Shown here piece after piece: positions 2,721 to 31,696 of a stretch of DNA of 64,000 nucleotides. Below the pieces are notes generated by a model, which saw nothing but the letters and a program-made list of their open reading frames with translations, did not search any database and was not told where the DNA came from. A program made the position numbers and the translations under genes. Origin of the DNA: Escherichia phage vB_EcoM_G2285; sequence record MK327933.1. One strand, 5' to 3'. The stretch's first letter is position 1. Every line of letters begins with the position of its first letter.

Positions 2721-3683
2721 TTATTTCCAAGTCAGTTCGCAGGTCAGTTGAAGAAGCATATACATAACATGTAATTCAATATTACTTGCTAATCCATGAA
2801 ACTTATTATTTTCGCCTGCAATTTCATAAAGCGAAATAATACTTTTACCTGGTGCAACTTTGTCATAACACTCAGAAACTAATTTATCGATGAACCATGA
2901 ATAATCAGCGGCATATTTTGGAGCTAACGCACGAAGCTGTTTGATATCTTTATTTTTCATTGCTTCTATGACATCATCTACCGTGCCACGATCATTGGTT
3001 ACAATCGACAAAATACCTGCATCAAGAACACCTTTAGACGAGTACTGGTCTAATTGACCAATTGTACGTCGAAAGTCCGGGAAGTTCTTTTTAACCAGAG
3101 CTGCAACAACTTTCATATCAGCGATTTCGATATTTTCGTTCTTACAGATTTCAACCATGCGATGAATCATTTTCTTCATCATTGAGATTTTATCTTCTTC
3201 GGTTGGACGTCCGAATTCGATAACTCGACAACGACTACGTAACGGTTCGATAATTCCATCGATGTTGTTGGCAGTAATAATAATAGAACAGTTACTAGAG
3301 AATTCTTCCATGAATGTACGAAGGTGACGTTGTGATTCAGCGAGGCCACTACGGTCAAATTCATCAATAACAATAACTTTAGGCTTGCCTTCCATTGAGA
3401 CTGAACGAGCGAATGCAGTTAATGGGCCACGCACAAAATCAATCTTACAATCAGAACCGTTGACGAACATCATTTCGGCATTGATATCATTACATAATGC
3501 TTTTGCTACGGTTGTTTTACCTGTACCAGGAGAAGGAGAGTGTAAAATAATATGAGGAAGTTTTCCTTTAGATACTAAAGACTTGAATGTTTCATGGTCA
3601 TACGCAGGCAGAATACATTCGTCAATGGAAGAAGGACGATATTTCTGTTCTAGAATGTGTTCTTTGGAATTGATAGTAATCAT
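2721..3683 (-). CDS. 44: Clamp loader ATPase gp44
   Basis: 320 aa; Walker [11 protein letters not shown], Walker [12 protein letters not shown] motif (LRSRC) typical of RFC-like clamp loaders. Confidence 0.9.
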
Positions 3684-4445: not shown

Positions 4446-4804
4446 TTAGGTTTCCTATTAGCATAATAATTTGTCCAAGACCGGATAGCACCTTGGTATG
4501 ATTCATCATTAAAACCATGCTGAATTGCATGTTTTCTAAATGTAATATAACTTGGTTTTCCTAAAGCAATCCACAATTCCTTTAATTTTTGTTCATGAAA
4601 TATCCATGTACCTCTAGCTTTAGATTTTCTGAATTTATCCTTAAATTCTTTGGTTGCATTTCTTTTCGAAGCTGCGATAGAGGCCTTTGCTCTATTTTCA
4701 GGTTTAGACCAATACAATGTTTTAGATATTTTTATTTTATCTTTAACATTAGGAGAATTCATTATATCTTTAAATTTTAAAGCAAAATCTCTATCGCTAA
4801 ACAT
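4442..4804 (-). CDS. Basic 120 aa protein overlapping the 3' end of the upstream GIY-YIG-like ORF; possible DNA-binding module or separate small gene
   Basis: ATG at 4802-4804 lies inside the last 28 nt of ORF 4777-5340 in another frame; lysine/arginine rich; ATGA overlap with gene 45 start. Confidence 0.4.
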   Translation of the reverse strand: MFSDRDFALKFKDIMNSPNVKDKIKISKTLYWSKPENRAKASIAASKRNATKEFKDKFRKSKARGTWIFHEQKLKELWIALGKPSYITFRKHAIQHGFNDESYQGAIRSWTNYYANRKPK

Positions 4805-5340
4805 TTTTTAGAACGAATAGAAACTTTCTCTCTTCGTTCTTTGGTCCAATATGTTTTTTGAAATTCTCTAATTGCGTTTAAATGATTCTCCGACAATTTG
4901 CAATTTTTTCTAACACCGACGTAATCTTCATTTATTTCGTTTTTAGAAAGTTTTACTATTTTGCCTGTTTTTAAATTTTTATACGGTGCGTATCCTTTAG
5001 CTGATATTCTAGACTTCTCGTTAGCATAAGCCTTATTAAAATATTTTTCATTTGAAACGGCTTTAACATTGAGTTGGAATAGTCTTTCTATTCTTCTAGG
5101 GTCTAATGTGGTTTCGCCTAAAATTTTTACAGAATATTCGCCTTGGTCTATTAATCTGTTATATAAAGGAGAATACGAGGAATTAACACTACCGGTATAT
5201 ATTTTACCGGTAGAATCTTCAATAATATCCTTTCCATTAAAATGACACGAAACTTTAGAACCTATATAATAACACGGGTATTCATTTTTAATCTCACGAT
5301 TATAAAAGGTTATAAGATATATTAAATTCATAATTATCAA
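4777..5340 (-). CDS. Seg-like GIY-YIG endonuclease (catalytic domain), inserted between rpbA and 45
   Basis: 187 aa; N-terminus NLIYLITFYNREIKNEYPCYYIGSKVSCHF resembles the GIY...YIG motif; ATGA overlap with the rpbA stop. Confidence 0.5.
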   Translation of the reverse strand: MIIMNLIYLITFYNREIKNEYPCYYIGSKVSCHFNGKDIIEDSTGKIYTGSVNSSYSPLYNRLIDQGEYSVKILGETTLDPRRIERLFQLNVKAVSNEKYFNKAYANEKSRISAKGYAPYKNLKTGKIVKLSKNEINEDYVGVRKNCKLSENHLNAIREFQKTYWTKERREKVSIRSKKCLAIEILL

Positions 5341-5753
5341 GCAGCAACCATTTGCTTTTTAATAGCTTCAGGCAGTGATTCAATATATTCTGGAATTTTA
5401 GAAGCAACAATTTCGCCAGCTGCAATTAGTTGTTCGTCGGCATCAACACAGTAAAAATCTTCAAGGCGTTCAGAACCGTCTTTATCAAGAACGATTTTAG
5501 CACCTGCTTCGATAGAATCTTTATAGTGCTTACGCATCAAATGAATCCACATATCAGACACATCGTTATCAATAAAACCATAAATCATGAAACGAGTTTC
5601 TTGTGGAAGAGATTGAAGCTTTTTAGCACTTGCGTCATCACAATGCAGGACCCATGCTTTACGAACACGATTATGGTTATGTGGGTTAGCGTCAGTACGG
5701 ATAGAAGTAACTTTCAGATCAGCAGCAGTGAAACCTTTAGCAGTAGTAAACAT
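5337..5753 (-). CDS. rpbA: Putative RNA polymerase-binding protein RpbA
   Basis: 138 aa ORF in the position of rpbA in the T4-type 46-45.2-rpbA-45 block; assigned by synteny only. Confidence 0.45.
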   Translation of the reverse strand: MFTTAKGFTAADLKVTSIRTDANPHNHNRVRKAWVLHCDDASAKKLQSLPQETRFMIYGFIDNDVSDMWIHLMRKHYKDSIEAGAKIVLDKDGSERLEDFYCVDADEQLIAAGEIVASKIPEYIESLPEAIKKQMVAA

Positions 5754-6034: not shown

Positions 6035-6751
6035 ATGAATTATAACTCAATATACGAAAAGCTTATCACCAATGCTAAATCAAGAAGTTTAGATGGTTAT
6101 ACAGAACGTCATCACATTATACCACAATGTTTAGGTGGAAGTGATGATGCTTTAAACTTAGTAGACTTAACACCGGAAGAACATTATTTGGCACATCAAC
6201 TGTTGGTAAAAATCCATCCAGATAATGCCTCTTTAATATATGCTGCTCGTATGATGACTATCTCATCTCCTAAAGCAGATAGAAGCAAAAACAAATTATT
6301 TGGATGGCTTCGACGTAAGAATCAAGAAGTTCAAAAGAACAAAGAATTCACTGCTGAAACTCGTAAGAAAATGTCCGAGTCGGCAAAAAATAAACCAAAG
6401 ATTACATGTCCACACTGCGGTTTAACCGGCACTGAAGGAAACATGAGACGTTGGCATTTTGATAACTGTAAACAAGGCCCTACGCCTAAAATAGTAAAAC
6501 TTGATCAAGAAACAAAGGATAAAATAATTAAAACCATGGCCACGAAAATTTGGAAAGAAGATTCTTGCCCGTTTTGTGGCTTAACTACTAAGTTATCGGC
6601 GTTAAAGCCGCATATAAAATTCTGTAAATCAAATCCTAACAGAAAGAAAAAAGAGGACAAGAAAATTAAATGTCCTCATTGCGATAAAATAGGGATCCCT
6701 GCTAATATGCGTCGTTGGCATTTTGATAACTGTAAACATAAGCCTCATTAA
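6035..6751 (+). CDS. HNH homing endonuclease with three C-terminal zinc-ribbon-like repeats
   Basis: 238 aa; HNH core TERHHIIPQCLGGSDDALNLVDLTPEEHYLAHQ; three CPxCG...NMRRWHFDNCK-like units; only plus-strand gene in the early region, between 45.2 and 46. Confidence 0.8.
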   Translation: MNYNSIYEKLITNAKSRSLDGYTERHHIIPQCLGGSDDALNLVDLTPEEHYLAHQLLVKIHPDNASLIYAARMMTISSPKADRSKNKLFGWLRRKNQEVQKNKEFTAETRKKMSESAKNKPKITCPHCGLTGTEGNMRRWHFDNCKQGPTPKIVKLDQETKDKIIKTMATKIWKEDSCPFCGLTTKLSALKPHIKFCKSNPNRKKKEDKKIKCPHCDKIGIPANMRRWHFDNCKHKPH

Positions 6752-8436
6752 GAGGCTTTCATTACAGTAAATCGTCCAACTTTGCTCATTTGCAAATGCT
6801 GTCCATAAGCTTGTGGGTCATGGTCTCTGTGACTAATTATAAACACGTTTGCATCGGTTAGAGAGTTAAGAATTGTTGAAATAGCTTTAATACCTTCAGA
6901 ATCAGTCGCGGAATCCATGACTTCGTCCATAATTAATGTATTGATTCTAACACCAGAGACCTTTTCAGCAATATCTCGCCATGTAAACAACAACGCGATA
7001 TCAATACGTGCTTTTTCACCTTGACTAAATGAAGCATAACTGAACTCTTCACGGCCACGTGATTTTATAGATTCGTTGAATTCTTCGTCAATAGAAAACA
7101 CGTAATCAGCTTCCATGATTTTAAGATAATGGTTAATCTGCTTGTTGAACAGAGGCACATATTTTTTAATGATAGCACCTTTAATACCAGAATCTTTTAA
7201 CATATCTGTAATAATACCACGATGGTATTTTTCAAGAACGATATCTGATTTTGTTTTAATGATTTTATCAAGTTCTTTTTGAAGCAAAGCTATCTCATCG
7301 GCATGGTCGATAAATTCTGCTGAGGCTTGCTCTATTGCAGCTTTAACTTTCTTAGCTTTATCAATAGTGGCAATCATTGCTTGTTTCTTGGTACGAATAT
7401 CAGATGCAAGGTCCTGTTTAGTCTTAACATTAGCTCTATATTCGTCCACTAGGACACTCAGATTATCTCTGTGACATGTAAGTTGCTCGAATGAGTGATT
7501 ACATTCATGAAGCTTATCGGTAATCTTAGAGACAATAGGATCACCCTGGTGCAACTGTGATGCACAAGTAGGACATGTGCCACCGTCATGATACATCTTA
7601 ATAACTTTGTTATATGAGTCGATTTTAGATTTAATCAAGAATGCTTCTTGTCCTATCTTGTTGAATGCCTCAGTAGGGTCTTCGTCAAGAACGATATTAA
7701 GTAGACGCTCGTTAGCTTCTTCAATTTCTGCTTTTAATGAACGAGCTTCTTTGGCTAGGTCGTCATACATATTCTGTAGACGCGCTACATTATCACCAGA
7801 TAATTTCTTTTGACGTTCGATATTCTCGTTATAAATCTTAATTTGTTGGATAACACCATCTTTCTTGGCATCGAGAACTTGTCCCTGGGAATTAAGTTCT
7901 CGAACTTGAGACTTATTGATTTTATCCATTTCAGCGAGTGTGCCGACTTCTAAAAGGTCTTCGACAAGTTTTCTACGAGCAGGGGTGCTAAGAGCCATGA
8001 AAGGGGTATACCCTGCCGTCCCAAGCACAACGATCTGTTTAAAAGACGCGTATGACATTCCGATGCTACGTTCAAATTCTTCTTGGAAGTCACGACTGCT
8101 GGCAGATTCATCAAGACGAACACCGTCAACGGAGATTTCGAAAATATTGGGCTTTTGGCCACGTCTAATGAAGTATTTTTTATCATCGAATTCCATCCAA
8201 AGCTCAACTAAGAGCTCTTTCTTGTTCGTGCTATTAATGATTTGTCCTTTCTTAACATCACGAAATGGTTTACCGAAAAGTCCGAAAGTAATGGCTTCTA
8301 ACATCGTAGATTTACCACCGCCATTTTTACCTGTGATTAAGGTCTTTTGGACTTTATCTAATTGGATATCGATAAAATTTTGCCCAACAGACATTATATT
8401 TTTATAACGAACACGATTTAATTTAAATGTTTTCAT
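6748..8436 (-). CDS. 46: Recombination/repair ATPase gp46 (SbcC/Rad50-like)
   Basis: 562 aa; Walker A GKNGGGKST near N-terminus, long coiled coil, CPTC zinc hook, C-terminal ABC signature and Walker B (LIMDEV). Confidence 0.9.
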   Translation of the reverse strand: MKTFKLNRVRYKNIMSVGQNFIDIQLDKVQKTLITGKNGGGKSTMLEAITFGLFGKPFRDVKKGQIINSTNKKELLVELWMEFDDKKYFIRRGQKPNIFEISVDGVRLDESASSRDFQEEFERSIGMSYASFKQIVVLGTAGYTPFMALSTPARRKLVEDLLEVGTLAEMDKINKSQVRELNSQGQVLDAKKDGVIQQIKIYNENIERQKKLSGDNVARLQNMYDDLAKEARSLKAEIEEANERLLNIVLDEDPTEAFNKIGQEAFLIKSKIDSYNKVIKMYHDGGTCPTCASQLHQGDPIVSKITDKLHECNHSFEQLTCHRDNLSVLVDEYRANVKTKQDLASDIRTKKQAMIATIDKAKKVKAAIEQASAEFIDHADEIALLQKELDKIIKTKSDIVLEKYHRGIITDMLKDSGIKGAIIKKYVPLFNKQINHYLKIMEADYVFSIDEEFNESIKSRGREEFSYASFSQGEKARIDIALLFTWRDIAEKVSGVRINTLIMDEVMDSATDSEGIKAISTILNSLTDANVFIISHRDHDPQAYGQHLQMSKVGRFTVMKAS

Positions 8437-25755: not shown

Positions 25756-26298
25756 TTATTTCAAAGTTGGGATAATAGAATCGAGATAAGCTTTAAGAGC
25801 AACTGCCTCATCTTTGTCTAATGTAATGATATGTTGACGAAGGTCATCAATTTGGCGAATAACTACGACATCACCATCTTCATAAGAAGGATTAACGCCT
25901 AGGACTGTTGTATAGTCAGGGCGGTCCTGATTTGTAATAAAAGCATTACGGCATTTAGCCCATTGAAGTTTGGCCTTTTTGGCTGTTTCAGATTCCATTA
26001 ATTCTTTCACCTTAGTGACGAATGTTTTCCAATTATTAATAGAAAAACATTCATCTTCGGTTTCGATATTAACCCCACTATAAAGTCCGTGATAAAAACG
26101 AACTTGAAGGTCTTCATCAATGTTAATTACAGATGCATGACCGGGTGGATTGAGTTTCAAAATCTTGTCTAGTTCCATAGGAAGAATAGTAGCAGCATCA
26201 TCTTCTTGTGTCAGAACATACACATAACCACGTTTTTCGATACATAAATCACCGAACAACTCGGTTGTTTCAATTACAGTTTTCATATTATTCACCAA
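25756..26298 (-). CDS. Hypothetical protein
   Basis: 180 aa ORF. Confidence 0.55.
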   Translation of the reverse strand: MVNNMKTVIETTELFGDLCIEKRGYVYVLTQEDDAATILPMELDKILKLNPPGHASVINIDEDLQVRFYHGLYSGVNIETEDECFSINNWKTFVTKVKELMESETAKKAKLQWAKCRNAFITNQDRPDYTTVLGVNPSYEDGDVVVIRQIDDLRQHIITLDKDEAVALKAYLDSIIPTLK

Positions 26299-26467
26299 TT
26301 AAAGTTTCAACAAAATTCACCAAAGCATTCTGGCACGCATCAACCTGATTTTCATAAAAGTCTCCGGTATCATTTACCGCATGGTAAGCTACATCATTCA
26401 AATCTGAATCGGCTTCACGTAAGTCACGGATAAGGTCCATCAATTTTTCAGCTTGTTCACGGGTCAT
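26288..26467 (-). CDS. Hypothetical small acidic protein (59 aa, below ORF-track cutoff)
   Basis: Own translation MTREQAEKLMDLIRDLREADSDLNDVAYHAVNDTGDFYENQVDACQNALVNFVETLIGE. Confidence 0.35.
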   Translation of the reverse strand: MTREQAEKLMDLIRDLREADSDLNDVAYHAVNDTGDFYENQVDACQNALVNFVETLIGE

Positions 26468-27126: not shown

Positions 27127-27429
27127 TTAGATAGATGTAGGCTCTAATTTTATTTTCATGAACTCGGCAAATTGTCTGGCAGTTTTTATGCCTTGTTCAT
27201 GACATTCAAATGCATCATCACAGGGGCTATTTTTGTAATGCTTTGCCATATACTTATAGAATTTTTCAGAATTCTCGACATTTTGAATTTCAAACAAAGT
27301 ATATACGTTTTTAATCCCTGATTCCATAAAGTTATCAAAATATGGGTCGATATATGCAGTACCAACGATAGGAGTTGTTGCTGCAAAAAACCCCAGCATC
27401 GCCATGACAGCTATCGCTCTTAAGGCCAT
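27127..27429 (-). CDS. rI: Lysis inhibition regulator RI (periplasmic, signal-anchor)
   Basis: 100 aa; MALRAIAVMAMLGFFAATTP signal-anchor then ...DPYFDNFMESGIKNVYTLFE...; immediately upstream of tk as in T4-type genomes. Confidence 0.7.
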   Translation of the reverse strand: MALRAIAVMAMLGFFAATTPIVGTAYIDPYFDNFMESGIKNVYTLFEIQNVENSEKFYKYMAKHYKNSPCDDAFECHEQGIKTARQFAEFMKIKLEPTSI

Positions 27430-27441
27430 ATAGGCCTCCTG

Positions 27442-27675
27442 TTAATTTTGGCCAGTATTTATTTTTCGCCTTTGGACGGCCTTAACATCTGTGAGGTATT
27501 TTTCCAGCTTGCGCTTGCGTGTATAATCAGCTTTAGAACCAGTTTGACGGATATCCTCGTTTAAATGAGAAATAGAATGTCCTAATTCTCTTCGGATTTC
27601 ATCTAATTGGGTTACAGTAAGATTACGAAGTTGTCTTTCGTTTAATTGCTGCATATATACCTCTTGGTTAGACAT
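27442..27675 (-). CDS. Hypothetical small basic protein
   Basis: 77 aa ORF between tk and rI. Confidence 0.45.
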
Positions 27676-27681
27676 TAGTAT

Positions 27682-28263
27682 TTATAACAACCCTGTCAAA
27701 TCATTCCAATGCTTCCGGCATAATGACACATATCTATCAGTATCACCAATTTCAATTTGACTGCCATCTGTAATTGGAAGTCCGTCTTCCGTGACTCTAG
27801 CTACCATTGTGGCCTTTTTACCGCAATGACAGACACCTTTAAGTTCAACAAGCTTATCGGCAATAGCCATTAATGCTTGAGAACCTTCAAATAGATTACC
27901 TTTAAAATCTGTTCGTAGTCCATATGCCATTACCGGCACATTGTATACGTCAACAATACGACTAAGTTGATACACCTTTTCAGTAGTTAAGAACTGAGCT
28001 TCGTCAACAAATACGCAGTGAATATCCTTTTGTGCTGCAGCCCATTTATAAAATTCAAAGATATCCATGTCTTTTGTAATTATATTGGCGTCCTGACGAA
28101 TACCAATACGAGAGACTATTTCACCTTTTGAATCGCGAGTATCAATAGCCGGTTTAAGAACTAATACACCCATGCCACGTTCTTTATAGTTATGTGCGGC
28201 AGTAAGTAATGAAGCAGACTTACCAGCGTTCATAGCGGCATAGGTAAAAATTAAACTAGCCAT
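27682..28263 (-). CDS. tk: Thymidine kinase
   Basis: 193 aa; P-loop AAMNAGKSASLL, C-terminal zinc-binding CHCGKKA...CRKHW. Confidence 0.9.
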   Translation of the reverse strand: MASLIFTYAAMNAGKSASLLTAAHNYKERGMGVLVLKPAIDTRDSKGEIVSRIGIRQDANIITKDMDIFEFYKWAAAQKDIHCVFVDEAQFLTTEKVYQLSRIVDVYNVPVMAYGLRTDFKGNLFEGSQALMAIADKLVELKGVCHCGKKATMVARVTEDGLPITDGSQIEIGDTDRYVSLCRKHWNDLTGLL

Positions 28264-28272
28264 AAGAGTCCC

Positions 28273-28455
28273 TTATAGTGAATTCACGTAGTCAATGAGT
28301 TCTTGTTCTTTCCTGTCAAATGATTCCAACAATGCTTGATATTCTTCGACCGTCAAAGGAGCATATTCATCATACGCATTGGTGGCTGCTTGTTCATCTA
28401 ATAGGTCATGGATAAGTTCGAACAGTTTAGCTTTCTCTTCTTTAGTTAATTTCAT
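28273..28455 (-). CDS. Hypothetical small acidic protein
   Basis: 60 aa ORF. Confidence 0.45.
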   Translation of the reverse strand: MKLTKEEKAKLFELIHDLLDEQAATNAYDEYAPLTVEEYQALLESFDRKEQELIDYVNSL

Positions 28456-28946
28456 TTAGGTTCCCAATCAACAATCACAATTTCTAGTTTAGTGGAATAC
28501 GTATCTAAAATCTCTTCGATGACATCCCAGTTTCCACCACCAATACCTGCACCAATTCTTGGCATATAAATTACAGGCTTTGTTATCTTATTCTTTCCGA
28601 ATTCATTTAATTCTATTATACAATTCATTAAAGCATAGTACTCAAAATTAGGTCCCGGCTCAAACTGCGTATAAAGATTAAAGCAATAAGCTTTATGGGT
28701 CTTAAAATATTTTTCATAAACCGAATAAGTCCCGAGTTTAGACTCGTCTCCGAATTCGGTTTGAAGTTTATCGGCTTCTAAAATTTTTGGATAAGCCTTT
28801 GCTAATTGACCTGCCACACCGGCGCCCATTGTATGAAAACAATTACACCCATGAGCTATATTATTACCTTTAGAAAACAGGGCGACAATATCGCCCTTGA
28901 TATAGTTTTTAATCACTTGCTGCAAGTCCTCTAGTATAAGAGTCAA
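28452..28946 (-). CDS. Putative macrodomain-like (ADP-ribose binding/processing) protein
   Basis: 164 aa; NNIAHGCNCFHTMGAGVAGQLAKAYP and PRIGAGIGGGNWDV resemble the two glycine-rich macrodomain motifs; recalled pattern only. Confidence 0.4.
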   Translation of the reverse strand: MTLILEDLQQVIKNYIKGDIVALFSKGNNIAHGCNCFHTMGAGVAGQLAKAYPKILEADKLQTEFGDESKLGTYSVYEKYFKTHKAYCFNLYTQFEPGPNFEYYALMNCIIELNEFGKNKITKPVIYMPRIGAGIGGGNWDVIEEILDTYSTKLEIVIVDWEPK

Positions 28947-29256
28947 CTAGACGGTCCACCATAGAATTGCATGCTGCCTTATCTTTAGGTTCCGCCACCG
29001 AGCATTCTAATATTTGCCATTTTTTATAGTATCTTTTAATTAAGGTAGACGCCTTGAACCTACTAGACGCCCCATCTTTTTCTCCGTCTTTATACGCATA
29101 TAACAATTTTTGTGAAAAATCTACTTTACACTCTTGACTTTTACCGCAATAATCAGACGCTGTTCTGTTTGTATACTCCGTTACATCGGTATATGTAGTA
29201 TTAGCAAGAGCATTAAATGAAACCAAGCCAACTATTAAAGCCAACATTTTGGTCAT
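28909..29256 (-). CDS. Secreted/periplasmic small protein
   Basis: 115 aa; N-terminal signal peptide MTKMLALIVGLVSFNALA; four cysteines. Confidence 0.5.
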   Translation of the reverse strand: MTKMLALIVGLVSFNALANTTYTDVTEYTNRTASDYCGKSQECKVDFSQKLLYAYKDGEKDGASSRFKASTLIKRYYKKWQILECSVAEPKDKAACNSMVDRLVDSYTRGLAASD

Positions 29257-29795
29257 TCTTTTATTTCCAGTAGTTTATTTGATTTAAGGTAATTAGCCTT
29301 TTCTAGGACTTCAGAAGCATATTTACTTCCAGCACTTGTCTTCCATCCCGCATTATATGAGGATATAGCTTTTCTTATATCCCCGTTATGTATATTTAAC
29401 CAATAAGAAAATTCGATATAAGCCCATCTGGCTGAATTAGACCGCTTAGATAGCATTTTCTTAATTTGGGCATCAGTCATATTATAACCAAGCTGGTTAA
29501 TTCTTGCCCTCATTGTTGGTAGATAATTTTGGAACATTCCATACGCATGGTGACCTTTCTTATCTTTAAGATTAATACCGGCAGATGATTCCTGCCATAG
29601 TATTGCGGCCATTATGTATCCAAGTCCTTTCTTATGCATATTTTCATGCGTTTTAAATTTTCCATCCTTAGAAAACTGTTCCCCAAACTGATAAGCATAA
29701 TTCAAGTTATCGAGTTGGACATTACTAAAAGTATGCTCGGAGCTATGTGCTGATAACGAAAGAGCAAATAGACCAGCGAGTAGTGCTTTTCTCAT
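29253..29795 (-). CDS. Secreted lytic transglycosylase-like protein (SLT domain)
   Basis: 180 aa; signal peptide MRKALLAGLFALSLSAHS; catalytic-type motif LWQESSAG and AYGMFQ. Confidence 0.6.
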   Translation of the reverse strand: MRKALLAGLFALSLSAHSSEHTFSNVQLDNLNYAYQFGEQFSKDGKFKTHENMHKKGLGYIMAAILWQESSAGINLKDKKGHHAYGMFQNYLPTMRARINQLGYNMTDAQIKKMLSKRSNSARWAYIEFSYWLNIHNGDIRKAISSYNAGWKTSAGSKYASEVLEKANYLKSNKLLEIKE

Positions 29796-29803
29796 GTTTA
29801 CCT

Positions 29804-30262
29804 CTAGATTTTAATCACTGCTTTAGAAGCTTTTCCTGGTAGTCGTTTACTGTTAATAATAGCCATTCTACATTGAAGAGTCTTCATTTTGAATGCTGGA
29901 TTTTCGCGACAAACTGTAAGTCCTAACCAAAGATTTCCATCAGTTATTTCTAAACGGCCCGGGCGATATTCGACACCTTCGACAAAATCTTCATCAACAT
30001 CTGGACGTGCCGGCATTGATAAAAATTCTGCAACTTCTTTAACATGATTTTTTACTTTATGAAATAATTCAAAAACGTAATTCTCATCTATTTCTCTCTG
30101 GATGGCACGATCTAAGAGATGTTGAGAATACTTGATATGAAAGCCTGGTAGTCCAAGAGACTTTGCAGCATCTTTTATACCGGCATTTATTTTGCGGAAC
30201 TCCGTTTCAAAGATTCGACGGAGTTTATTACGGCGGATAAAAACGTCTGAATTGATAGTCAT
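29804..30262 (-). CDS. regB: Putative site-specific endoribonuclease RegB
   Basis: 152 aa ORF (RegB is about 153 aa) located between tk and denV; assigned by size and synteny, not by a motif. Confidence 0.45.
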   Translation of the reverse strand: MTINSDVFIRRNKLRRIFETEFRKINAGIKDAAKSLGLPGFHIKYSQHLLDRAIQREIDENYVFELFHKVKNHVKEVAEFLSMPARPDVDEDFVEGVEYRPGRLEITDGNLWLGLTVCRENPAFKMKTLQCRMAIINSKRLPGKASKAVIKI

Positions 30263-30270
30263 TTTGATTT

Positions 30271-30319
30271 CTCCTCTAGTTGACAGGTCTATAGTAACAC
30301 AACTAGAGGAGAAGTAAAC
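30271..30319 (-). promoter_or_regulatory. Early-type promoter with 11-bp inverted repeat able to sequester the regB Shine-Dalgarno
   Basis: Minus strand GTTTAC (plus 30314-30319); arms CTCCTCTAGTT (30271-30281) and AACTAGAGGAG (30301-30311); left arm contains the SD of the ATG at 30262. Confidence 0.5.
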
Positions 30320-30323
30320 TACT

Positions 30324-30581
30324 TTATTGATAAAATGGAGTTAAAGCCCAAGATTCTTTAGATACCATATTGGCGAAATGCCTCATCTCTTCGATTTGGC
30401 GACGACGCTGGTCAGCATAGTCTTCTTCGCCTTCTTCCTTACAATCTTCAAGGTCTTCTTCAAGATACTTTAAGTATTCACTACAAATTTTGTTGACCTT
30501 TTCTTGAAAGTCCAATAACCCAGTAATAGTAGAAGCCATTAGTATTTTTCCTCGGGTCGAAATACCGCACGACATGCCCAC
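30324..30581 (-). CDS. Hypothetical small acidic protein
   Basis: 85 aa ORF (71 aa from second Met MASTITGLLDF). Confidence 0.45.
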   Translation of the reverse strand: MGMSCGISTRGKILMASTITGLLDFQEKVNKICSEYLKYLEEDLEDCKEEGEEDYADQRRRQIEEMRHFANMVSKESWALTPFYQ

Positions 30582-30805
30582 ATGCTGGCTTCTTTTAGAT
30601 GTTGCTTAGCATACTTAAGAGCCTGCACTGCATCCATATCTTCTTTGGTTTGTTGCTCTGTTTCATTTTCTTTCAAGATATATGCTTCTTCAATCAGAGC
30701 ATCAAACAACAATCCAAGACGGACTTCAGCATCTTTAATAGCGTTCACTTTACCGATTTTATCATCGGTATGCGGCTTGTAGCCTTTGATGTCTTCAATC
30801 GACAT
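30539..30805 (-). CDS. Hypothetical small protein
   Basis: ORF 30539-30973 overlaps the upstream ORF by about 180 nt; internal Met (MSIEDIKGYKPHTDDK...) at 30805 gives 88 aa. Confidence 0.4.
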   Translation of the reverse strand: MSIEDIKGYKPHTDDKIGKVNAIKDAEVRLGLLFDALIEEAYILKENETEQQTKEDMDAVQALKYAKQHLKEASMWACRAVFRPEEKY

Positions 30806-31019
30806 AAGGAATTTCCTCATCTGTGGCAAGGTCATATTCGACCAATTGGATAGGCTCATTAATACCATATCCACGTACAGTGATATCAGTTGTCGGATAG
30901 TTTCCAGTAATATCACCCGTTCTAAATGCTTCAATGAATGATTGCTCGCCTGAGCAACTAAACCAGGCGGCAAAACATTTTAAAACATCTTCAGACCCTT
31001 CTATAATCAATTTAGCCAT
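30795..31019 (-). CDS. Hypothetical small acidic protein
   Basis: 74 aa ORF. Confidence 0.45.
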   Translation of the reverse strand: MAKLIIEGSEDVLKCFAAWFSCSGEQSFIEAFRTGDITGNYPTTDITVRGYGINEPIQLVEYDLATDEEIPYVD

Positions 31020-31381
31020 TATAGACTTTCAGTAAAGGTACGAGCGATAACGTCGCGCTGCTGTTCCGGAGTCAGAGAGTTAAAGCGAACTGCATAACCA
31101 GATACACGGATGGTCAGCTGCGGATATTTTTCCGGATGCTTAACTGCATCTTCCAGAGTTTCACGACGCAGAACGTTAACGTTCAGATGTTGACCACCTT
31201 CAATTTTAACTTTAGGTTGATGTTCAATTTCAATTTCACGGGCATTCAAACCGTAGAAAATTTCCGGGTCTACAATAGCGTCTTCTTTAAAAGTCTTAGA
31301 GACAATAATCCGGGCTTGAGTACCGTCTTCAAAATAAATAGTGCCTTTATGTGCACCTTCAAGAATTTGATATGCTTTCAT
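31019..31381 (-). CDS. Autonomous glycyl radical cofactor (GrcA/YfiD-like)
   Basis: 120 aa; C-terminal [60 protein letters not shown] contains the RVSGY glycyl radical motif and closely matches my recollection of E. coli GrcA. Confidence 0.75.
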
Positions 31382-31387
31382 ATAACC

Positions 31388-31696
31388 TCAATTAGAAAAT
31401 AAATTTATCCAAGTTTTTTCTTTAATCAAAAATGGGTCGGAATTAAACGCCATTAAACTTTGAGTGATTAATCCCTTAAATGGCCCATCAATAAATTCCA
31501 TTTTGAAATGCGGAATACTAGTCATCAACCGTGCATTAGGAGCAGTACAAAGAACCTGCTGCCCTGCGAACGGACCTTTAGTCAAACGATATCGTTTAGG
31601 TTTAAAATGGTAAATCTCATAATTTTCTACAAGAGCCCTTTTATTGCATACTGGGCTGTTATAACAATACTCAAAAACTTCAATAGTGGTCATCAT
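31388..31696 (-). CDS. Hypothetical protein with KOW-like GPFxG motifs
   Basis: ORF 31388-31744, start probably MMTTIEV at 31696; two GPF(A/K)G motifs (TKGPFAGQQV, DGPFKGLI). Confidence 0.4.
   Translation of the reverse strand: MMTTIEVFEYCYNSPVCNKRALVENYEIYHFKPKRYRLTKGPFAGQQVLCTAPNARLMTSIPHFKMEFIDGPFKGLITQSLMAFNSDPFLIKEKTWINLFSN

Follow-up and report, generated by a model that had tools for sequence, protein, structure and literature searches.

A Macrodomain Protein Encoded by tk.4 of an RB69-like Phage, an Ortholog of T4 AdfM, Carries Glutamine in Place of the Catalytic Lysine

The gene between vs and tk.2 in Escherichia phage vB_EcoM_G2285 (MK327933.1; the whole 64,000-nucleotide stretch analyzed here is referred to as the window) encodes a macrodomain protein and is the Mosigvirus (RB69-group) ortholog of T4 tk.4, a gene recently renamed adfM. 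The reading that we prefer, with a probability of about 0.7, is that the product, RB69-group AdfM, is a standalone 154-aa macrodomain protein of the ALC1-like/TARG1 class that hydrolyzes the DNA ADP-ribose made by DarT2 by a glutamine-type route. In the proposed mechanism, the host toxin DarT2 would place ADP-ribose on thymidines in single-stranded phage DNA and so block replication, and the phage macrodomain would bind the ADP-ribose in the cleft between its two glycine-rich loops. Hydrolysis of the thymine-ribose bond would then restore normal DNA, with Gln84, held by Asn25, placing the distal ribose so that water can attack it, as in SCO6735 of Streptomyces coelicolor.

That DarT toxins defend against phages by ADP-ribosylating DNA has been recognized only recently, and a catalog of phage erasers of this mark is now emerging, with AdfN acting on guanine and AdfM on thymine. 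The tk.4 gene described here does not represent a new kind of system and shows that the thymine-side eraser gene is intact in RB69-group phages. Its macrodomain nature is already in public annotation, and the T4 ortholog already has a named anti-defense function, so that neither is new. What it adds is modest and concerns mechanism: the lysine that is thought to be essential in DarG is missing from the T-even AdfM, which bears on the generality of the lysine-independent mechanism of the SCO6735 type.

Gene Organization and Translational Start

The 2.3-kb stretch around the open reading frame has 98.5-98.9% nucleotide identity to RB69 and other Mosigvirus phages, and the source of the window is, by its sequence, an RB69-like Mosigvirus. 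The gene order vs, tk.4, tk.2, tk is common to T4, RB69, and the window (Table 1). The tight packing of vs, tk.4, and tk.2, with overlaps of 8 nt and of ATGA, is typical of the T-even cluster, and the ATGA overlap of tk.4 and tk.2 is a layout typical of translational coupling.

Table 1. Features of the tk.4 locus, given in window coordinates
Feature	Position	Strand	Remarks
vs (valyl-tRNA synthetase modifier), upstream gene	28909..29256	-	Last 8 nt overlap the tk.4 start
Ten extra codons LTLILEDLQQ, from TTG	28917..28946	-	Inside the 3' end of vs
tk.4 / adfM coding sequence	28452..28916	-	Initiates at GTG and ends at TGA; encodes a standalone macrodomain protein of 154 aa
Loop 1 segment NNIAHGCNCFHTMGAGVAGQ, residues 18-37	28806..28865	-	Invariant H22-G-C-N25-C motif; GxG turn binding the distal ribose and phosphate, by alignment
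Asn25 codon	28842..28844	-	Conserved active-site asparagine
Gln84 codon	28665..28667	-	Column of the catalytic lysine in DarG (K80), TARG1 (K84), and PhiKZ AdfM (K78), and of Gln85 in SCO6735
Loop 2 segment PRIGAGIGGGNWD, residues 119-131	28524..28562	-	Diphosphate-binding loop, by alignment
tk.2, downstream gene	28273..28455	-	Its ATG overlaps the tk.4 TGA within ATGA
tk (thymidine kinase)	27682..28263	-	Landmark gene named in the original prediction

The original prediction, which was made from the sequence of the window, took the gene as 28452..28946 with a product of 164 aa. This frame exists and is present in the open reading frame list with a TTG start on the minus strand, but its start does not stand: translation most likely begins at the GTG at 28916, which shortens the protein to 154 aa, and the ten codons upstream of it are in all likelihood not read as tk.4. 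A gene of 465 nt beginning at this GTG is annotated in RB69 and in phage moha. In the alignment the GTG falls on the T4 tk.4 initiation codon, an ATG; T4 has an in-frame TAG immediately before this ATG and so has no possibility of a longer N terminus. The sequence GAGGA is located 11 nt upstream of the tk.4 start in T4 and in the window phage alike, and the seven homologs retrieved (147-159 aa in length) all have an N terminus of the form MI.. followed by an I/V-K-G-D motif. On the basis of the RB69 and moha annotation, the T4 alignment, the GAGGA sequence, and the homolog N termini, the gene was taken as 28452..28916, and the TTG at 28946 was rejected.

The region 27400..31500 was scanned for promoters and contained 10 promoter-like sites as compared with 13.2 expected by chance; because such sites are no commoner than chance, the scan says nothing on the expression of tk.4. 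The terminator scan identified a perfect 8-bp GC-rich hairpin, AGGGCGATATTGTCGCCCT, at 28879..28897 (minus strand), which is followed by a T-rich tail. The hairpin is located within tk.4, 17 nt into the coding sequence, and covers the conserved KGDIVAL codons; it could be a coincidence of these codons or an element that acts on translation or on RNA stability.

The interval between tk.4 and tk differs among these phages. T4 has tk.3 and tk.1 besides tk.2 (T4 locus 2847..3426), whereas the window phage and RB69 have tk.2 only; a tk.1-like gene of RB69 is annotated further downstream and corresponds to the open reading frame 26288..26467 of the window. Most close Mosigvirus relatives match the region 27600..29900 (2,301 nt) in two pieces that span ~2,716 nt. 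The ~415 extra bases of these relatives, which are absent from the window, RB69, and moha, are probably one more small open reading frame.

Overall Fold and Classification

The open reading frame had been proposed to encode a macrodomain protein, and this is upheld by a Pfam match above the curated cutoff, by sequence matches to solved macrodomains, and by a confidently predicted macrodomain fold. The search against Macro/A1pp profiles that the original prediction had suggested as a check matched Pfam Macro (PF01661) with 27.4 bits (E = 3.4e-6; gathering cutoff, 22 bits) over profile positions 2-117 of 118, and PHROG 335 was matched at 3.3e-66. A sequence search of the PDB matched the macrodomains of BT1257, Poa1p, SCO6735, TARG1, and DarG, and the E-values dropped to 1e-10 to 1e-17 when the profile of a 47-sequence family was used. 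The AlphaFold2 model, which was calculated on the alignment of this family, has a mean pLDDT of 94 and a pTM of 0.89. It comprises alternating strands and helices arranged in a three-layer α/β/α fold with a central mixed sheet, and the predicted fold is thus that of a macrodomain rather than one of another type. In a Foldseek comparison of the model with the PDB, TARG1, Poa1p, BT1257, and DarG came first, each with a probability of 1.00, followed by viral macrodomains; there were 99 PDB matches at E ≤ 0.001, and those listed as the top 50 are either macrodomains or hydrolases designed on a macrodomain scaffold. These sequence and Foldseek matches place the protein in the ALC1-like/TARG1 class. 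In existing records the gene is labeled "phosphatase; contains A1pp phosphatase motif" (RB69 and T4) or "macro domain protein" or "Poa1p-like" (others).

Homologs were detected by tblastn in 2,841 of 50,697 phage records from many host genera, in agreement with a published estimate that a macrodomain is present in ~41% of myoviruses (PMC9503650). The 18 columns that are invariant among 47 phage and metagenome homologs are all retained in the window protein. The non-ATG start codon, together with the incorrect start of the original prediction, might suggest a chance open reading frame or a decayed pseudogene without function. This view is refuted by the Pfam Macro match, the conservation over the full length in thousands of phage records, the retained invariant columns, and the confident fold prediction, to which the tightly coupled operon architecture can be added, and its probability is negligible.

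Identity with a true DarG antitoxin was also considered and rejected. The NCBIfam and PADLOC models of DarG match weakly and in the macrodomain part only (for NCBIfam NF048014, a score of 30.7 bits where 250 is required, over positions 4-148 of a model of 338), and the catalytic lysine, the C-terminal domain, and, in a tblastn search with one DarT2 query, a nearby DarT are all missing. The DarG2 macrodomains of Thermus aquaticus (5M31/5M3E) and Mycobacterium tuberculosis (5M3I) have the same fold as the model, with TM scores of ~0.71-0.74, but DarG2 is a two-domain protein of ~340 aa with a C-terminal DarT-binding domain, whereas Tk.4 is a macrodomain alone. A tblastn search of the window with one Pseudomonas aeruginosa DarT2 sequence, a single query of limited sensitivity, gave nothing significant. 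By analogy with the T4 ortholog, DarG2 and Tk.4 would have DarT2-modified thymidine as a common target.

Relationship to T4 AdfM and Other Phage Proteins

T4 Tk.4 is 84% identical to the window protein over the full length without gaps, and the invariant residues, including Gln84 and Asn25, are common to both. The T4 gene starts with ATG rather than GTG, and its product has Lys126 where the window protein has Gly126. RB69 Tk.4 and the window protein differ by two substitutions, A32G and Y94S.

AdfM (anti-DarT factor, macrodomain) is the new name for T4 Tk.4 (10.1101/2025.11.20.689424). In the HIDEN-SEQ study, a bioRxiv preprint of November 2025, a T4 transposon library was screened on Escherichia coli expressing DarTG2; tk.4 was the single significant hit, and a clean deletion of the gene made T4 sensitive to DarTG2 (10.1101/2025.11.20.689424). 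The evidence for T4 tk.4 is genetic only, and enzymatic removal of ADP-ribose from DNA "seems likely" according to the authors (10.1101/2025.11.20.689424). T4 that lacks adfA and adfN is still resistant to DarTG2, from which a further factor had been predicted (PMC11825919). The suggestion in the original prediction that a phage macrodomain could reverse DNA ADP-ribosylation by host toxins is therefore correct in kind, the T4 ortholog being genetically required against DarTG2 (10.1101/2025.11.20.689424), and had already been published. The allele in the window would, by analogy, have the same anti-DarTG2 role as the T4 allele.

Both anti-DarT1 factors of RB69 are reported to be without function, AdfA having R164 and AdfN being truncated by a frameshift (PMC11825919). 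In contrast, tk.4/adfM is intact in RB69 and in the window, with all invariant residues present. RB69-group phages would then be exposed to DarT1, on the guanine side, and apparently equipped against DarT2, on the thymine side. In the whole genome of T5, a DarTG2-sensitive phage (10.1101/2025.11.20.689424; PMC11825919), no macrodomain of the Tk.4 class is detectable by tblastn or with two family profiles, a single case that is consistent with the anti-DarTG2 explanation. Two T5 genes, at 6447..7265 and 7588..8094, are annotated as Sir2 (NAD-dependent deacetylase/ADP-ribosylase), one of them encoding only 168 aa; T5 thus has NAD-linked enzymes and no detectable ALC1-like eraser.

A second phage protein named AdfM, gp104 of PhiKZ, is also a standalone macrodomain that counters DarTG2, and it removes DarT2-made ADP-ribose from DNA biochemically, an activity impaired in the N23A mutant (PMC13309987). 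PhiKZ gp104 is DarG-like (DarG match, E = 9e-25) and keeps Lys78 and Trp81, in contrast to the Gln84 of Tk.4. Its relationship to the Tk.4 family is distant, with an hhalign probability of 95 and 20% identity. The two AdfM proteins thus belong to separate branches of this class.

ADP-ribose-binding Loops and Active Site

The two glycine-rich segments on which the macrodomain proposal had been based, NNIAHGCNCFHTMGAGVAGQ and PRIGAGIGGGNWD, are both encoded and correspond, by alignment to DarG, to the two ADP-ribose-binding loops. Residues 30-33 (MGAG) and 122-128 (GAGIGGG) are aligned with ADP-ribose-contacting residues of DarG, and seven of the 11 contacting residues of T. aquaticus DarG (N22, V31, Q34, T79, G117, G119, and G121) are identical in Tk.4. 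Gly122, Gly124, and Gly126, which are aligned with the three DarG glycines, are invariant or nearly so across the family, and Thr83, Gln37, Val34, and the loop 2 glycines are also conserved. Asn25 is equivalent to Asn22 of DarG, Asn23 of PhiKZ AdfM, and Asn27 of SCO6735 in the alignments. Mutation of this residue impairs DarG, SCO6735 (PMC9411070), and PhiKZ AdfM (PMC13309987).

The catalytic lysine of DarG is replaced by Gln84, and DarG Trp83, the proposed thymine stacker, by Pro87. Gln84 is invariant in the 47 phage and metagenome homologs and in 80 of 80 bacterial homologs. In the MAFFT multiple alignment its column contains Lys80 of DarG from both species and Lys78 of PhiKZ, and the profile-profile (hhalign) and profile-sequence (hmmsearch) alignments agree in pairing it with Lys84 of TARG1. 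One pairwise hhalign alignment, with PhiKZ gp104, is off by one residue, whereas the MAFFT alignment is not shifted. The single-sequence phmmer alignment to BT1257 has the NLYTQ segment in another, ungapped register, and the mutually agreeing profile-based alignments were preferred. The register is validated by the alignment numbering, which recovers all the residues that the DarG paper names. There is no lysine between residues 76 and 107 of the window protein, so that a small alignment shift could not restore a catalytic lysine. The sequences used in these comparisons were taken from PDB alignments (DarG, SCO6735, and BT1257) or from the methods of the published paper (PhiKZ gp104), and that of TARG1 was checked against the PDB.

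A parallel to this arrangement of residues is found in SCO6735 (PDB 5E3B), in which Gln85 takes the place of the lysine and the catalytic residues of TARG1 and DarG are missing (PMC9411070). SCO6735 removes thymidine-linked ADP-ribose from DNA, and it confers protection against DarT; the Q85A and Q85E mutants are inactive, and N27S is nearly so (PMC9411070). The mechanism proposed for it is initiated by water, with Gln85, held by Asn27, positioning the distal ribose (PMC9411070). The Tk.4 family aligns with SCO6735 with an hhalign probability of 98.4 (23% identity to the family profile), and in this alignment Asn81, Gln85, His24, and Asn27 of SCO6735 are paired with Asn80, Gln84, His22, and Asn25 of Tk.4, the loop 2 glycines being conserved. 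Both proteins are ALC1-like and standalone, with glutamine at the catalytic-lysine position and no adjacent DarT. On this pattern of residues, Tk.4 probably uses a lysine-independent route of the SCO6735 type and not the lysine nucleophile of DarG and TARG1. BT1257 from Bacteroides has an H-x-C-N motif and the glutamine in common with Tk.4. Neither the glutamine-for-lysine difference nor a link to SCO6735 was found in the T4 AdfM preprint (10.1101/2025.11.20.689424) or the PhiKZ AdfM paper (PMC13309987), and the titles and abstracts of literature combining SCO6735, bacteriophage, and DarT contain nothing on Tk.4.

There are also differences between the two proteins. SCO6735 is the product of a DNA-damage-regulated bacterial gene, whereas Tk.4 is a phage protein. 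Lys34 of SCO6735, which positions the DNA, is replaced by Ala32 in Tk.4, and Lys89 is located in a 5-residue segment that is absent from Tk.4, the loop after the glutamine being shorter by these 5 residues. Since Tk.4 lacks Lys80 and Trp83 of DarG as well as Lys34 and Lys89 of SCO6735, its sequence gives no guarantee of a DNA substrate.

A different substrate is envisaged if the protein removes ADP-ribose from proteins or RNA, either tuning the marks made by phage Alt, ModA, and ModB or undoing host toxins directed at protein or RNA. T4-like phages encode three ADP-ribosyltransferases, and human TARG1 (OARD1), which is among the best sequence matches and is the best structural match, acts on modified proteins, as does SCO6735 (PMC9411070). 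However, the Lys84/Asp125 dyad that TARG1 uses for glutamate-linked protein ADP-ribose is absent from Tk.4, in which Gln84 and Gly126 occupy these positions. The T4 screen tied tk.4 to DarTG2 only (10.1101/2025.11.20.689424), and the alternative is in our view very unlikely.

DarT2 might also be neutralized mainly by binding of the toxin or by shielding of its product, so that catalysis would not be needed. The inactive Q85A mutant of SCO6735 still inhibits DarT in vitro, and does so more strongly than DarG K80A or TARG1 K84A (PMC9411070); full-length DarG likewise inhibits DarT by contact (DarG paper). The 154-aa Tk.4, however, has no DarT-binding C-terminal domain, and the DarG macrodomain with K80A alone gave no inhibition of DarT (DarG paper). 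The strict invariance of the active site across phages and bacteria argues for catalysis, and a purely non-catalytic action seems highly improbable. We infer instead that Tk.4 acts by hydrolysis, with the glutamine-type mechanism outlined above.

Bacterial Relatives and Lineage

A scan of bacteria with one genome per species returned 290 stretches that encode relatives of Tk.4, of which the best 80, with 35-46% identity, were kept. These 80 are standalone open reading frames of ~150 aa, and all of them have His22, Gly23, Cys24, Asn25, Cys26, Asn80, Tyr82, Gln84, Gly122, Gly124, Gly128, and Trp130. A tblastn search with one DarT2 query, which has limited sensitivity, detected no DarT2 homolog within 4 kb of any of the 80. 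No conserved toxin partner was found near them, and the synteny observed is at the level of lineages and involves unrelated genes only; recurrent neighbors encode a PLP enzyme, a member of the EEP nuclease/phosphatase family, an ArgC-like dehydrogenase, an EamA transporter, a DUF72 protein, and signal peptidase II. With standalone genes, ordinary neighbors, and no DarT detected nearby, the Tk.4 family does not resemble an orphan antitoxin derived from DarTG, and the lack of linkage to DarT means that the ancestral substrate of the family may be something else.

The phage protein could also process a small ADP-ribose derivative rather than DNA, acting as an ADP-ribose-1''-phosphate phosphatase like Poa1p, deacetylating O-acetyl-ADP-ribose, or degrading immune signals based on ADP-ribose. 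Besides the position of the bacterial relatives among housekeeping genes and not beside toxins, this view is favored by the phosphatase label in the RB69 and T4 records and by a comparative-genomics survey, which argues that the targets of phage macrodomains are mostly ADP-ribose derivatives of low molecular weight (PMC9503650). Poa1p, a yeast phosphatase, is among the best matches in sequence and fold (phmmer E = 1.3e-8; Foldseek TM 0.75-0.80) and shares the H-x-C-N-C motif, although the match is strong in the N-terminal half only and the phmmer alignment places serine in Poa1p at the position of Gln84. No phosphatase assay of any Tk.4-family protein was found in the literature searched, and the T4 ortholog is specifically required on DarTG2, a toxin that modifies DNA (10.1101/2025.11.20.689424). 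We therefore regard a small-molecule substrate for the phage protein as unlikely and retain DarT2-modified DNA as its probable substrate.

With regard to lineage, we lean slightly toward the view that AdfM of the T4/RB69 type is not a captured DarG and represents a separate, widespread branch of standalone proteins, characterized by the motifs H-G-C-N-C and N-x-Y-T-Q and by glutamine in place of the catalytic lysine. In that case anti-DarT2 macrodomains would have emerged on at least two occasions among phages, from distinct enzyme lineages, as the lysine type in PhiKZ and as the glutamine type in the T-even phages, and the toxin-free bacterial relatives would be general erasers of ADP-ribose from DNA (or from other substrates).

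At seven loci of marine alphaproteobacteria (Rhodobacterales and related groups; ~4460..5690), the Tk.4-like gene is followed immediately by a gene for an EEP-family protein of ~400 aa (Pfam PF03372) and is often preceded by the gene for a PLP-dependent enzyme. The pair of macrodomain and EEP nuclease could constitute a small repair module for DNA ADP-ribose or could reflect the shared ancestry of these genomes.
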